A stretch of 32,356 bases of DNA from a virus (lineage: Duplodnaviria > Caudoviricetes), in IMG/VR virus record IMGVR_UViG_3300020043_004150, positions 1 through 32,356 of that record; one strand, given 5' to 3'. Under the pieces are notes generated by a model, which was not told the origin of the DNA, searched no databases, and was given only the letters and a program-made list of their open reading frames with translations. The translations under genes were made by a program, and so were the position numbers. Positions 17,464 through 32,356 of this stretch are shown here, piece after piece. The stretch's first letter is position 1; each line of letters begins with the position of its first letter.

Positions 17464-18788
17464 TGTTAACTAAAGAAATCTTATTTGAACTACCTGAAGT
17501 GCTAGCAGAGCCAATGGTTATCAAAGACTTCTTCCCGAGCAACATGCTTGAGCGTGTTAAGAAAATAGTTGCAAATACAGGTATGGGAACAGATAAAGTT
17601 GAATTTCATACCATGCTTGCTAGATGGGAAGCACCGGTACAATTTGATGCTGATATTGAAGAGTATTGTTTAAATAAAGCCAGAGAGATTTTTAAAGATA
17701 ACTCATTACAAAAAGCTTATTTCTTTGCTGTTAGATACCAGAGAAAAGACGGATGTGTTCCGCATCTTTGGGAACATACAGATCAAAACGGTACACAAAC
17801 AACAATAGATATAACAATAGAAAACACAGCAAATTGGGGATTGATAGTAGAAGGTCAACATTTTGAACAAAACCCAAATGATGCAATTATCTTTGCTGGT
17901 CAACAGCATATGCATGCAAGACCACCGTATCCAACAAAAGATGAAAATGCATATACAACTGTTTTGTTTTTGCACTTTACACAACCAGATCATTGGATTC
18001 AAAAGGATAAAGATGGGTTTCATAAGTATGGCTCAGATGGTGACGCAAGGTTCTTTAACCGCAATCGCTACTTTGCAATGCCTGATGCCCCGATAAATCA
18101 ACCAGTTTGCCGTTGCCATGACTATTCTGTGATATTAAGATTTTATGATGAGTTTTTTGGGCATCTGATTGAATCTCAACCAGAGACAGTGGATATGAGA
18201 ATTTTAAATAAAGTAGAACTAGCCCCAGGAATTATTAAATATAAAGTTTCTAAAGAGTCAGTTCGTATATTAAAAGGGCTAACCCAAAACTCTATGTTTA
18301 AACAATGGCAACCTGCAGAGGTTCTTGTTGAAGACAATAAGCCGGGTATAAACTACGCTGCTAGAAATTGTTATAATTATTTTATAACAGGCAAAGAGTC
18401 AAGTTGCCATCCTCAAGACCCTATTAGAAGGCTCTCAGAATCCCTCCAGACGGGCCTGGATGCGATTATAGAAGACTTTAGGGGTAAGTACAGTATTGTA
18501 GACCTAATTTCTCATCATACGGTTTTATTGCGCTATGAAGAAGGCAATAAGTTCCATTATCACATAGATGATCACCCCAAGTTTCCAAGGGTTGTATCGC
18601 TTTCTATGTTTTTAAATGATGATTATGAAGGCGGAGTGTTAGAATTTAACCATTTTGGATTAAGGATTACTCCAGAAGCAGGCGATATCATCGTGTTTTG
18701 TTCTGGGTTTCCTTATATGCATCAAGTAGAGCCGGTAACTAAGGGTATTCGCTATGCAGTCGTAAAATGGTATGAATACAAAATGTAA
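17463..18788 (+). CDS. Tandem two-domain 2OG-Fe(II) dioxygenase (prolyl 4-hydroxylase-like)
   Basis: TGATG-coupled start at 17463. Domain 1: HTD...HAR. Domain 2: HID...YEGGVLEF...MHQVEPVTKGIRY. Confidence 0.85.
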   Translation: MLTKEILFELPEVLAEPMVIKDFFPSNMLERVKKIVANTGMGTDKVEFHTMLARWEAPVQFDADIEEYCLNKAREIFKDNSLQKAYFFAVRYQRKDGCVPHLWEHTDQNGTQTTIDITIENTANWGLIVEGQHFEQNPNDAIIFAGQQHMHARPPYPTKDENAYTTVLFLHFTQPDHWIQKDKDGFHKYGSDGDARFFNRNRYFAMPDAPINQPVCRCHDYSVILRFYDEFFGHLIESQPETVDMRILNKVELAPGIIKYKVSKESVRILKGLTQNSMFKQWQPAEVLVEDNKPGINYAARNCYNYFITGKESSCHPQDPIRRLSESLQTGLDAIIEDFRGKYSIVDLISHHTVLLRYEEGNKFHYHIDDHPKFPRVVSLSMFLNDDYEGGVLEFNHFGLRITPEAGDIIVFCSGFPYMHQVEPVTKGIRYAVVKWYEYKM

Positions 18789-25335: not shown

Positions 25336-25360
25336 TGTAACAAAACACCTTATAATAAGG
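25336..25360 (+). promoter_or_regulatory. Putative late promoter, copy 5 (GTAA-N16-AAG variant)
   Basis: TGTAA-caaaacacct-TATAAT-AAGG, upstream of the phosphoesterase-lysin pair. Confidence 0.55.
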
Positions 25361-26322: not shown

Positions 26323-26342
26323 TTAACTAAACAGGAGGTCCT

Positions 26343-26723
26343 GTGAATACATTATTATTTATCCTGGCGTTAGCTATGCCTACACACGACAATCGCCTTT
26401 GTCCTGAATACACAAAGGATATTCGTAAGGCTGGGTTGCCGGTTGCAGAGTTTGATTACATTGCCAAAAGAGAGTCTGGCTGTAATCCTAAAGCGATCAA
26501 TGCTCGCTTTGATAAGAAAGGTAAGGTTATCTGGACTTTAAATAAGAACGGGTCCATAGACAGAGGATTGTTTCAAATCAACTCTGTCCATGAACAAACC
26601 GTTCGTAAATTATGCAAGTCTGACCTTGATGCTTTGCTAACACTTGACTGCAATCTTAAGGTTGCTAAGTATCTGTATGACAGATATGGCTTAGTTCCTT
26701 GGAAAGCAGTAGTTAAGCCTTAA
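26343..26723 (+). CDS. Lytic transglycosylase (SLT / lysozyme-like) with signal peptide, putative endolysin
   Basis: IAKRESG catalytic Glu, DRGLFQIN, C-terminal PW, hydrophobic N-terminus. Confidence 0.85.
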   Translation: MNTLLFILALAMPTHDNRLCPEYTKDIRKAGLPVAEFDYIAKRESGCNPKAINARFDKKGKVIWTLNKNGSIDRGLFQINSVHEQTVRKLCKSDLDALLTLDCNLKVAKYLYDRYGLVPWKAVVKP

Positions 26724-29232: not shown

Positions 29233-31109
29233 TTTACTTTCTCCTTTTTGTTATAACTGTTTGCTTTATCAACTGCTTTGCGTTTCTTTTCATAAACAAG
29301 TTTGTCTCTGTGCATTTCATTTAACCAATCTGCTGGCGGATCTTCATTAAATGTTTTGGAATCTTCATGCTTACAACGAGTTTTGTGTGTGATAACTGCA
29401 CGGCGTTTAACAACCTGCGTTACCCAATCAACAACATCGTTATCACCGGCAAGCCAACGCAACGATTCATCAAATCTCCAATGAGGTACAAGGTCTTTGG
29501 CTAACATATAACAGAAACCTGCCATACCGCCCCAACCGTCATATCGTGAACCTGACACGCCGTAAACATCACGATCTCTGTCATCATTGACATTTGGTTC
29601 TGTTGAATAGTTAGGGCATATCAATCCAATTGATGGGTCTCGCAACATACAAGTCATAAGAGTTGTCATACAATCTGGGGCTAAAGATATGTCATCATTG
29701 ATAAATGCCATGTAGTTACCAGTGCCAAGAACTTTCATGGCTGTATTCCACATGCGATGAATACCAATACCTTCCGGGACCATTAATTTAATAATGTTGT
29801 CGGGTATAGCAGATAAGCTATTATAAGCTTTGTCTCCGTCAGCAATAACAACAATACGATCAACTTTGTAATCCCTCATAAGTTGTGCAATAAGCACTGT
29901 CAAACCATTGAGATTAGATTTGTAAGGGATAACAACATCAACTTTTGCTTCTTGGGCCTTATAAAAGAATAAATTGTTTTGCAATCTTATGTCATTTGGG
30001 GCTAATGATAAAGCAATAGTGCCGTGTTTAACAGCTACATCCATCATGCCAAGCTGTGCTGAAGCCAATGCAAGCAGATCGTGAGGCAACCAACCCCACA
30101 TAATTGCTTCGGTTAGATACAAATCACCACGATTGGTGATAGATAATGCTCTATTGGCAGCATCAAACATACCAGCCCAGTTCTTCACATCCTGATAATG
30201 CTGTGCTAATTCAACCCAGCATTCTCTGCCATGACTCCATTCAGCAACAGCACGAAGCAACCATTGTTCACGCTCGTGAGAGCCAACAGGTGATTGTTTA
30301 GCGATGTAACGCATTGAGAAGGCTCTTTCTGCATCCCAAGTAGCACTCTTGAGGGCTAAATGTCGTTTAAACATTGCAATAGATTCTTCTGTACGCCCGT
30401 AATACATTAATTCTCGGGCGGCATAATAAGTATTTCTATCGTTTTCTGGGTTTTCTTCTACATCTAACAATAACAAAGGTAGATAAGAACTACGAGGCTT
30501 GCTATTGTCAGCGAAGTGCTGGATACGCAGTCCAGTCCAGCCTTGACGCTCTTCTTCTAGTGCTACATTGACTTCATGTACTCTGTTAACCCATTTATGT
30601 GAGTGTCTGCGTACAATCTTGTCTCCACGATATGATAAACCAACTGATTTAGTTGCCCTTGTTGCTTCAATATCATATTCACCGTTTTCTTTAAATACCG
30701 GTTGAGTCCAATTCCAATCGTAATCATAACGAGGTCGGTTTACAATCAAAGGAACCGGGTCTAAATGTCTTCTCCAATCTGGTACAAAGACTTCATCAAG
30801 GTCAAGGTTAATCAACCAAGCATCATTGTCAGGCAACATCTCACGCAAATCATTGCGGGCAACCGCAAAAGACCAACTATCATATGTTTTATAAAATACT
30901 GTAATGCCTAATGACTCTGCTAGTTCTTTAGAACCATCAGTTGAGCCTGTATCAAGCAGATAAACACCATCACCTTCTCGTAGTTCTGGTTTAATGCTGT
31001 CATACCAGCGTTTTACATGCTTGGCTTCGTTTTTCATGATGCTGCAAACATAAACAGGTAAATTATTACCTTCTGTGACATGTGGTGTTTTTACAAGTGG
31101 TAACATCAT
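29229..31109 (-). CDS. Glycosyltransferase, GT2-TPR-GT2 fusion
   Basis: IMKNE, DTGSTDG, FAVARN, LDLDE and VHE; TPR-like helices; second GT-A domain VVIPY...WN...INDD...GDND. Confidence 0.9.
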   Translation of the reverse strand: MMLPLVKTPHVTEGNNLPVYVCSIMKNEAKHVKRWYDSIKPELREGDGVYLLDTGSTDGSKELAESLGITVFYKTYDSWSFAVARNDLREMLPDNDAWLINLDLDEVFVPDWRRHLDPVPLIVNRPRYDYDWNWTQPVFKENGEYDIEATRATKSVGLSYRGDKIVRRHSHKWVNRVHEVNVALEEERQGWTGLRIQHFADNSKPRSSYLPLLLLDVEENPENDRNTYYAARELMYYGRTEESIAMFKRHLALKSATWDAERAFSMRYIAKQSPVGSHEREQWLLRAVAEWSHGRECWVELAQHYQDVKNWAGMFDAANRALSITNRGDLYLTEAIMWGWLPHDLLALASAQLGMMDVAVKHGTIALSLAPNDIRLQNNLFFYKAQEAKVDVVIPYKSNLNGLTVLIAQLMRDYKVDRIVVIADGDKAYNSLSAIPDNIIKLMVPEGIGIHRMWNTAMKVLGTGNYMAFINDDISLAPDCMTTLMTCMLRDPSIGLICPNYSTEPNVNDDRDRDVYGVSGSRYDGWGGMAGFCYMLAKDLVPHWRFDESLRWLAGDNDVVDWVTQVVKRRAVITHKTRCKHEDSKTFNEDPPADWLNEMHRDKLVYEKKRKAVDKANSYNKKEKVK

Positions 31110-31474
31110 TATTTAGCCTCCTTCTGGCTTGGGTGTTGTTGTTTTGCTCTTGAATGCCTATCACGCTTCTCACGATGCATCTGTGCAATGTTTTCTTTCT
31201 GGGTGCATAGATACAAATGATCGGGGTTAACACATAATGGTGTATTACACTTATGTGCTACAACCATACCTTCTGGGATCTCATGTTGAGATAACAACCA
31301 GGAAACACGATGAGCTGCTACTCCTTTGCCATCAAAAGCAAATGAACCGTAACCGGCATTGTTCCTGCCAGCTTGCCAAATCCAACATTCTTTTGGACTT
31401 GTAATTTTAACTTTAGACCAGAATCTAACGAATGCTGGGTAGTGCTTAGCGCCTTTATAACTTCCTCTTGCCAT
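31109..31474 (-). CDS. HNH endonuclease
   Basis: RFWSKV...CWIWQ...GYG...AHRVSW...HKCNTPLCVNPDHL...TQKEN; AGGAGG RBS. Confidence 0.9.
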   Translation of the reverse strand: MARGSYKGAKHYPAFVRFWSKVKITSPKECWIWQAGRNNAGYGSFAFDGKGVAAHRVSWLLSQHEIPEGMVVAHKCNTPLCVNPDHLYLCTQKENIAQMHREKRDRHSRAKQQHPSQKEAK

Positions 31475-31519
31475 ATAATCCTCCTTATATGTAAATAAAC
31501 TCTTAAAAGAGTCTGATAC

Positions 31520-31528
31520 ATCATACCA
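31520..31528 (-). promoter_or_regulatory. Extended -10 housekeeping-type promoter for the minus-strand operon
   Basis: TGgTATGAT on the minus strand, ~45 bp upstream of the HNH start. Confidence 0.5.
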
Positions 31529-31730
31529 TAGTATTTATTCTAAAGCGGATAGTAATGAATAAATCTTTGAAACACACAAAAGCTGTAAAGAAAATATACG
31601 CTCACATATATTGGCGGGTTTAAATTAATAAAGATTATAAGTAATAATCTTAAAAAAAAATATAAAAGAATCTATATAAGATATAAAGAATCTCAACCAC
31701 TCTTGGTGAGCAACAACCACGCACAGTGAT

Positions 31731-31775
31731 CCCATACCAAACAAACTCTGTATCTGTCAATAAAATTAAAAAAAA
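31731..31775 (-). promoter_or_regulatory. Possible second leftward sigma-70-type promoter
   Basis: T-tract UP-like element, perfect TTGACA (31760-31755), 18 bp, then TATGGG with TG extension (imperfect -10). Confidence 0.35.
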
Positions 31776-31936
31776 GAGAGCTAATTACGACTAAATAAGT
31801 CAAGTATTACAAGGGTTTGCTACGCAGTCCTATACCTACTCTAGACTCTATACAACTTAGAATCTATATAACCCCGCAAACTTTATCTTTAAAATAGATT
31901 TATTAAATATTTCTTTATTTGGCGGGCAAGAGCATA

Positions 31937-31961
31937 TGTAATGTGCTATGCTATATATAGG
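31937..31961 (+). promoter_or_regulatory. Putative late promoter, GTAA-N16-TAG copy 6
   Basis: TGTAA-tgtgctatgc-TATATA-TAGG, with no substantial ORF downstream. Confidence 0.6.
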
Positions 31962-32083
31962 CAACTGATACCCACCAAGAGATCGGAAGCTTAGCAATGC
32001 GGTTCCTCCTGTTGAATCTATGAAGTTCCGCCCAATCGTGTTGCGAAGGAAGCCCCAGTAGAAATGCTGGGGTTTTTCTTTTT
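31961..32083 (+). ncRNA. Candidate ~120-nt structured small RNA
   Basis: Bounded by the promoter motif and an intrinsic terminator. GC-richer than its flanks. Nested stems GCAAC-UGAU/AUCG-U-GUUGC and CGGAAGCUU/AAGUUCCG, with apical UUCCUCCUGUU. Confidence 0.55.
32050..32083 (+). terminator. Rho-independent terminator
   Basis: aagccccagta-GAAA-tgctggggttt followed by ttcttttt. Confidence 0.85.
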
Positions 32084-32277
32084 GTACCCAATTGTTGACT
32101 AATTTAGTCGGGATTAATTGTTAACCTGTTTAGTCGAGATTAACCACGCAGAGTAGTCAAGTGTCAGTTTTGCTAGGGCAAAGTGTCAGGCTAACCTAAC
32201 ATTGCTGTGCCTATGGACACACCTGCTTACGGAGAGTGGTTAATTAACTACAATAAGTGATAATAAAGATATAAAAA

Positions 32278-32355
32278 GGCGGAGAAATATTTGTTAAAGT
32301 TCAAAACGGTTATGAAATAGACGAACTGCATAAGGTTTATGCAACTGGTCCAAAC
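32278..32355 (+). repeat. Exact 78-bp copy of 2494..2571 at the window end
   Basis: ggcggagaaatatttg...ctggtccaaac is identical in both places; the final base 32356 differs. Confidence 0.95.
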
Positions 32356-32356
32356 C

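Follow-up and report, generated by a model that had tools for sequence, protein, structure and literature searches.

A likely small RNA with a predicted open anti-Shine-Dalgarno seed at the genome end of a freshwater phage, and its candidate targets

We wanted to establish what is encoded by a promoter-to-terminator unit at positions 31937-32083 of a single virus record (IMG/VR IMGVR_UViG_3300020043_004150, 32,356 nucleotides; "the window" denotes this whole stretch of DNA) and, if the product is a small RNA, which translation start it might control. A first-pass annotation, made from the sequence alone, had proposed a trans-acting antisense RNA that times or dampens lysis by pairing with the ribosome-binding site (RBS) of the lysin gene or, failing that, a more general anti-Shine-Dalgarno (anti-SD) RNA. 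By PHROG and Pfam assignment of 38 proteins, the + strand carries the late arm, with tail fibre, large terminase, P22-like portal, scaffold, capsid, phosphoesterase, and SLT-domain gene, and the - strand carries the early arm, with sigma-70 region 4, RusA, methyltransferase, two HNH proteins, and glycosyltransferase; the unit lies in the non-coding end past 31474. Searches for tRNA and tmRNA found none, and scans of genome collections gave no match. Near-identical DNA was present in 19 DNA runs and one RNA run (small share) from nine studies, chiefly of fresh water, wetland, and estuary. Because the syntenic relative G006 encodes WhiB, which PMC10202952 suggests as an actinophage indicator, we infer that the host is an actinobacterium. 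The best explanation is a freshwater, podovirus-like phage in which the unit sits in the non-coding gap separating the early and late arms. The features of the unit and its immediate surroundings are as follows.

31937..31961, + strand: late-type phage promoter, TGTAATG-N10-TATATAGG (rank 1 with the relatives-only matrix)
31944-31952, + strand: host-type extended -10, TG-N-TATGCT, inside the late promoter (read from the sequence)
31959..32083, + strand: predicted small RNA of ~125 nt (from promoter, terminator, and lack of a + strand ORF; ends inferred)
31960..31992, + strand: weak 5' hairpin, -5.5 kcal/mol (predicted fold)
31994..32044, + strand: 11-bp stem bearing the anti-SD loop, 31994-32004 with 32034-32044 (predicted fold)
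32005..32015, + strand: anti-SD seed, CCUCCU at 32005-32010 (predicted open) plus a weakly paired 3' extension (fold and complementarity)
32048..32083, + strand: intrinsic terminator with GAAA loop (terminator scan and fold z)
32090..32141, + strand: pair of 26-bp direct repeats (core GAC..GTC), outside the RNA and shared with the terminal gap of relatives

To score promoters, we built a weight matrix from 28 distinct TGTAA-type sites located upstream of the small-terminase-like gene of relatives, with the window itself excluded. The site at 31937 had the top score of the window on both strands (19.9 bits), confirming the copy of the late-promoter motif that had been read at 31937-31961; the runners-up, at 18784, 10356, and 12862, each precede structural genes. 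Upstream of the phosphoesterase-lysin pair, the site at 25336 scored 12.7 bits, which bears out the view that the unit and the lysin operon share a promoter class. At the other end, the hairpin at 32048-32077, with its GAAA loop and U-rich tail, is the sole terminator-like site within 30800-32356 and has a fold z of -4.25 (0 of 200 shuffles folded as well), and the GAAA-capped terminator annotated there stands. The fold z of the whole unit was -1.99. On the + strand the unit is, as annotated, devoid of a substantial ORF, every frame having a stop or being without a ribosome site; the - strand carries a 46-codon TTG frame (31997-31857). The unit thus has its own promoter, an intrinsic terminator, and no ORF on its transcribed strand, as looked for in a trans-acting anti-SD small RNA.

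The first-pass annotation had placed the anti-SD sequence in an apical loop. We correct this: in the predicted fold, CCUCCU occupies a 6x2 internal loop with an unpaired probability of 0.96-0.99, so that the seed is single-stranded there, and the GUU that follows it, which lengthens the match to the lysin, is weakly paired. Taken by itself, the middle hairpin has modest stability (z = -1.9). A natural variant, G32040A, converts a U.G pair of the 11-bp stem to U-A and strengthens the stem; it was present in all six runs compared. Because the element was found in these six runs with this one common difference, it is real DNA. The ten bases at 31982-31991, which we take to match exactly the first bases of a widely used sequencing adapter, are likewise real in the window because public runs carry them; trimming of adapters could hide reads of the predicted RNA. 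A metagenome search with a pattern that included these bases returned 24 matches, which were adapter tails or unrelated sequence and were rejected.

The RNA run, X20, was available as contigs only and contained scattered contigs of 126-312 bases along the genome. One of these, 151 bases long at a depth of 4, spans 31974-32122 and runs 39 bases beyond the terminator. Gaps in the X20 cover over parts of the genome are not evidence of absence, and its contigs neither show nor exclude a discrete RNA. From promoter and terminator, we infer that the unit is transcribed, and a small RNA of ~125 nt is the likely product.

We then compared the unit with related phages. Searches with the capsid, small-terminase, and glycosyltransferase genes gave 80, 75, and 4 relative loci, respectively; the phosphoesterase gave 80 loci, just one of them syntenic by the genes tested, and no locus came from the sigma-region gene. 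Among the capsid relatives, the nearest five are short fragments that lack the terminal region. A sequence homolog of the window RNA was not found in the relative loci or in scans of viral contigs, metagenomes, and genome collections; exact-pattern scans of viral contigs returned 29 matches to the promoter start and 52 to the loop, with no homolog among them, and a scan with the repeat motif returned just two contigs, both already in hand as relatives. Near the unit, only the repeats at 32090-32141 have sequence matches in relatives. Spaced GAC..GTC repeats are kept in the terminal gap (window 31782-31808 and 32090-32141; L353, L354, L362, L355, and L297) and are possible protein-binding, replication, or packaging sites.

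In most syntenic relatives, nevertheless, a promoter-to-terminator unit lies on the early strand immediately inside a C-run motif, a position that we refer to as the slot; the C-run motif lies where the terminal repeat of G032 falls. The main slot family, of which we aligned 12 units, has compensatory changes at 16 of 34 pairs, and its last stem is followed by UUCUCCU in every unit, a seed kept while the stems vary. Units of this family (alignment A2; L392:3046-3172 (+), L303:4794-4924 (-), and 10 more) are ~130 nt long, with two hairpins and a G-rich first loop, and are uncatalogued, having no Rfam match in the loci scanned. The family model, R1, also matches L324, L334, L336, L351, L350, L348, and L345. 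It gave no match to the window at E<=10 (18 sources searched) and none in G006, L347, L299, L353, or L354. We conclude from these sequence comparisons that the slot holds real structured units and that the window RNA is a positional counterpart of the main family but not a member of it. The closest positional counterpart of the window unit, in L353, has a terminator followed by the same repeats, in the slot orientation on the early strand. Other conserved sequences occur around the slot. A second promoter-to-terminator unit of ~165 nt lies on the other side of the C-run (L303 ~5340, L312 ~3132, L350 ~9040, and L351 ~9170, all (-)), and a third of ~147 nt, on the late strand (L316 ~8202, L317 ~2237, and L351 ~7413, all (+)), ends in a hairpin whose loop reads UUCCUCC or UUCUCC. 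In the slot of another subclade there is a different conserved structured sequence (L354:2233-2376 (-), L257:16913-17046 (+), and L259:14799-14932 (-)), without an anti-SD or a clear terminator.

These comparisons bear on whether the CCUCCU matters at all. The unit could be an insulated promoter-terminator pair beside conserved repeats, with the RNA a by-product or acting otherwise and the CCUCCU incidental. Such an account would fit the finding that slot contents are not homologous between subclades, that the repeats alone are matched in relatives, that the middle hairpin is of modest stability, and that the units of L353, G029, and L348 have no CUCCU or CCUCC on the transcribed strand. CUCCU or CCUCC was present in 8 of 14 hand-delimited units versus 3.15 expected (P = 0.003); after merging related units and leaving the window out, it was present in 4 of 8 families versus 1.9 expected (P = 0.08), so that enrichment at the level of families is not significant. 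Against this account, the main family combines a covarying 5' hairpin with an invariant anti-SD tail, and its CUCC lies in the terminator U-tract. CUCC within a terminator U-tract would weaken termination, and a motif kept at this cost suggests selection. We regard an incidental CCUCCU as rather unlikely. As to conservation, then, the case for a trans-acting anti-SD RNA finds covariation and an invariant motif in the main slot family; for the window RNA itself, there is no homolog, and its nearest counterpart is without the motif.

The terminal region in which the relatives carry these units is disturbed in our contig, and the following segment is at issue.

31827..32282, strand not assigned: segment holding the unit, with flanks that differ from public runs (runs; motif order in L353 and L347)

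Four runs (X1, X2, X3, and X5) have other letters before 31827, extending up to 2.5 kb in X2 and 3.2 kb in X3, and their contigs end 7-23 letters past 32282. The last ~75 bases (32281-32356) hold a tail-fibre-like motif common to many other contigs and phages. There are probable mis-joins at 31827-31829 and 32282-32356, and the contig probably carries the segment between them wrongly joined and inverted. The inversion is suggested by one contig of X9 (depth 6.4), which links 31808 to 32282 on opposite strands, and by synteny with relatives, in which the slot unit is on the early strand, and with the order in L353. Because the small-terminase-like gene, the C-run motif, and an early gene that encodes a protein with a PATxKQ motif are all absent from the window, we take the terminal region to be missing from this contig.

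This early gene came to attention through the relative G006, whose unit (L255:14489-14657 (-)) is like the window unit in layout and terminator base. In G006, 12 bases of a hairpin loop are the exact complement of the leader of the phage's own early gene (L362:538-1071 (-)), a gene of 177 codons between the C-run and the small terminase. The match has P = 0.004 given the CUCC core, none of 60 shuffles was as good, and the gene ranks first of 44, at -20.9 kcal/mol versus -13.4 for the next. Judged by complementarity, this loop and leader are the cleanest candidate for an RNA-target pair that we saw. We tested 23 units, each against the genome or locus that carries it; only G006 beat 60 of 60 shuffles, with G005 (2) and G028 (3) close; corrected for the 23 units, P for G006 is ~0.1, and the PATxKQ target was chosen after the G006 match had been seen. 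A short fragment of the G006 unit folds differently, and its predicted open loop is thus context-dependent.

The 177-codon protein of G006 ends in the PATxKQ motif, which it shares with a 62-codon early gene product of relatives (e.g. L316:9334-9522 (-)), and the gene is found in 14 of 29 relative loci. The protein matched no PHROG, and Pfam gave nothing above cut-off; its Atlas matches are viral clusters of hypothetical proteins and, at low score, a DUF3072 lead. Bases 32006-32015 of the window loop form a 10-base complement of the ribosome site of the PATxKQ gene in 2 of 11 distinct contexts. Over 652 GGAG-led contexts, no real gene is matched at greater length, and the pairing shares the top place (P ~0.03); the one 11-base match in that set reads a tail-fibre gene out of frame. 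For all six PATxKQ sites tested, the window RNA is predicted to pair at -9.9 to -13.6 kcal/mol, versus -9.6 for its own lysin. In the 11 loci listed with the gene, the slot region (main-family units) pairs with it over just 0-8 bases, and slot RNAs pair with terminal early genes generally over 0-9 bases outside G006, save for one doubtful 36-codon frame.

The reading that we tentatively favor, while holding it to be short of probable, is that the unit makes a small antisense RNA whose open anti-SD seed prevents initiation, and that its likeliest main target is an early gene of the terminal region and not the lysin alone. The RNA would dock on a ribosome-binding site via the CCUCCU, which is predicted to be open, and pairing would spread into the 3' bases of the loop and block translation initiation. 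Its main target would be a small early gene that lies toward the genome end and that this contig lacks. The slot units of relatives have a host-type -10 only and do not exceed 9.8 bits with the late matrix; because the window copy has a late-type promoter on top of the host-type -10, we propose that a late-type promoter was gained and that the RNA accumulates late, where it could shut off an early gene still transcribed by the host polymerase. Other GGAG-led starts, the lysin included, would be weaker secondary targets. On the models used here, the fold and the open seed are predicted, whereas pairing in the cell, repression, and the identity of the target are further steps of the proposal. 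It is also conceivable, although unlikely, that the slot is swappable, with unrelated RNA scaffolds exchanged at the genome end and converging on the display of an anti-SD, and that, in some lineages, base-for-base tuning has fitted the loop to the leader of a first-entering early gene to give an RNA off switch for host takeover.

The RNA might instead be made but have no specific gene as its target, its open CCUCCU pairing weakly with many phage and host SDs or binding a protein, and the longer matches being due to chance. The best matches are typically of 8-10 bases and fall on different genes in different relatives, just one of the 23 units beats all 60 shuffles, and the UUCUCCU of the main family is invariant whatever its lysin or early genes carry, all of which would be expected of such an RNA. 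The 12-base, loop-long match of G006 would not be, and an RNA directed late and broadly against SDs would presumably also affect the phage's own structural genes. We consider a non-specific RNA unlikely.

The proposal of the first-pass annotation itself, a late antisense RNA acting on lysis, concerns the following site.

26330..26345, + strand: RBS and GTG start of the SLT-domain (lytic transglycosylase) gene 26343-26723, the target first proposed

Its central observation was confirmed: the 9-base complement of the seed occurs once on the + strand, at 26330, before the SLT-domain gene, and is exact. By length of perfect complement, the lysin ranks first of 41 called starts, six of which have AGGAGG, and by hybrid energy without accessibility it is again best, at -21.0 versus -20.9 for the next. 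With opening energies on both sides, it falls to fourth of 36, at -9.6 kcal/mol and with the 9-base helix only. A second helix, in which UGCGG (31998-32002) was to cover the GTG start, is occluded, as UGCGG lies inside the 11-bp stem; opening it would cost 8.3 kcal/mol, or 11.6 with G32040A. When the flanks of the core were shuffled, some gene was matched at 9 bases or more in 27% of cases and the lysin in 5.5% (P = 0.055 given the core), and 11 of 60 shuffled units matched the real one (9 bases or more), which puts the chance of a 9-base match to some gene at 18-27%. Of 10 relatives examined, nine have the lysin. It ranks first in G005 (11 bases with other letters; 2 of 60 shuffles as good), is tied first in G032, and is tied at 8 bases in G034; these three are one subclade, in which a U-rich terminator tail faces an A-rich SD. 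In the other six (G025, G029, G014, G027, G028, and G026), the lysin ranks 14th to 54th. Five of these six have no GGAG site at the lysin, which starts by our interpretation with CTG or TTG by the upstream stop, and the units of five of the six still carry CUCCU or CCUCC. Weak start codons are the rule for the SLT gene, apparently CTG overlapping the upstream stop in G014, G026, G028, and G029 and TTG or GTG in others.

Neither here nor in the relatives, then, does the lysin consistently outrank other SD-led starts, and it is near the top in three of nine relatives. The exact match, the shared promoter class, and the cis antisense RNA over the endolysin that has been proposed in phage PAK_P4 (PMC5563952) speak for a lysis timer. 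In view of the rank with accessibility, the occluded second helix, the readiness with which 9-base matches arise, and the confinement of the passing relatives to one subclade, a role in timing or dampening lysis is improbable. A trans-acting anti-SD RNA is plausible in that it has positional counterparts in relatives, and the broader fallback of the first-pass annotation survives; the lysis-timing role is not well supported. It is very improbable that CCTCCT is simply the SD (AGGAGG, 7 bases from the TTG at 31997) of an opposite-strand gene, for although the spacing is good and the 46-codon frame open, the frame crosses the promoter, has no homolog in 405 loci save a promoter-derived 15-residue match, and has no equivalent in the counterparts of L347 and G014.

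Overall, the unit is real, a small RNA is its likely product, a role at the lysin is weak, and the alternative target is testable. Few phage small RNAs have a known target. If our preferred reading is true, these freshwater phages, abundant and uncultured, offer a ready-made set of RNA-target pairs, in which the pairing of the G006 loop with its early-gene leader is a sharp prediction; if it fails, the locus is a caution that 9-base anti-SD matches commonly arise by chance. No small RNA of this phage group was found in the literature searched, mostly titles and abstracts. Short sequence words gave no match in the readable supplements of the viral structured-RNA catalogue of Fremin (PMC10690425), whose alignment archives may list the main slot family. 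Rfam 15, which includes cuckoo/ar14, 6C, and C4, gave three matches at E<=1 in the window, none of them at the unit, and a scan of eight relatives' loci gave none at the gathering score.

Among known systems, the cuckoo or alpha-r14 small RNAs resemble the window RNA in presenting a single-stranded anti-SD-like motif on variable stems with a terminator of their own (PMC4615179). Cuckoo RNAs are alphaproteobacterial and have 2-4 neighbouring hairpins, and the apical loop of each contains CCUCCUCCC (PMC4615179), whereas the window RNA is phage-encoded and has one CCUCCU, in an internal loop, which places it outside that family. The 6C RNA of Actinobacteria, likely the same phylum as the host, also has a C-rich single strand that would pair with mRNA without a chaperone (PMC6486639), but it is a host gene with C-run loops on conserved hairpins (PMC6486639), and the window RNA has no Rfam 6C match. 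PAK_P4as15, for which a delay of lysis via RNA against the endolysin has been proposed, is ~550 nt long, matches the endolysin gene in cis, and is itself hypothetical (PMC5563952); the window RNA has a 9-base match in trans. Highly transcribed non-coding regions at the genome ends of actinophages, in WC1 and the cluster A mycobacteriophages, are left unexplained as to function in PMC10986025; we liken them to the window RNA by position and host group only, the window phage belonging to another phage group and its RNA being predicted from DNA. Closest to the mechanism proposed here are c4 of P1/P7 and sar of P22, phage RNAs whose loops block the ribosome site of a phage gene (PMC12197685). They control an antirepressor in temperate phages (PMC12197685), while the window RNA has no Rfam C4 match, no immunity context that we could see, and a target that is a candidate only. 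By analogy, the window unit would work like the cuckoo, 6C, and c4 RNAs while standing outside each of these families.
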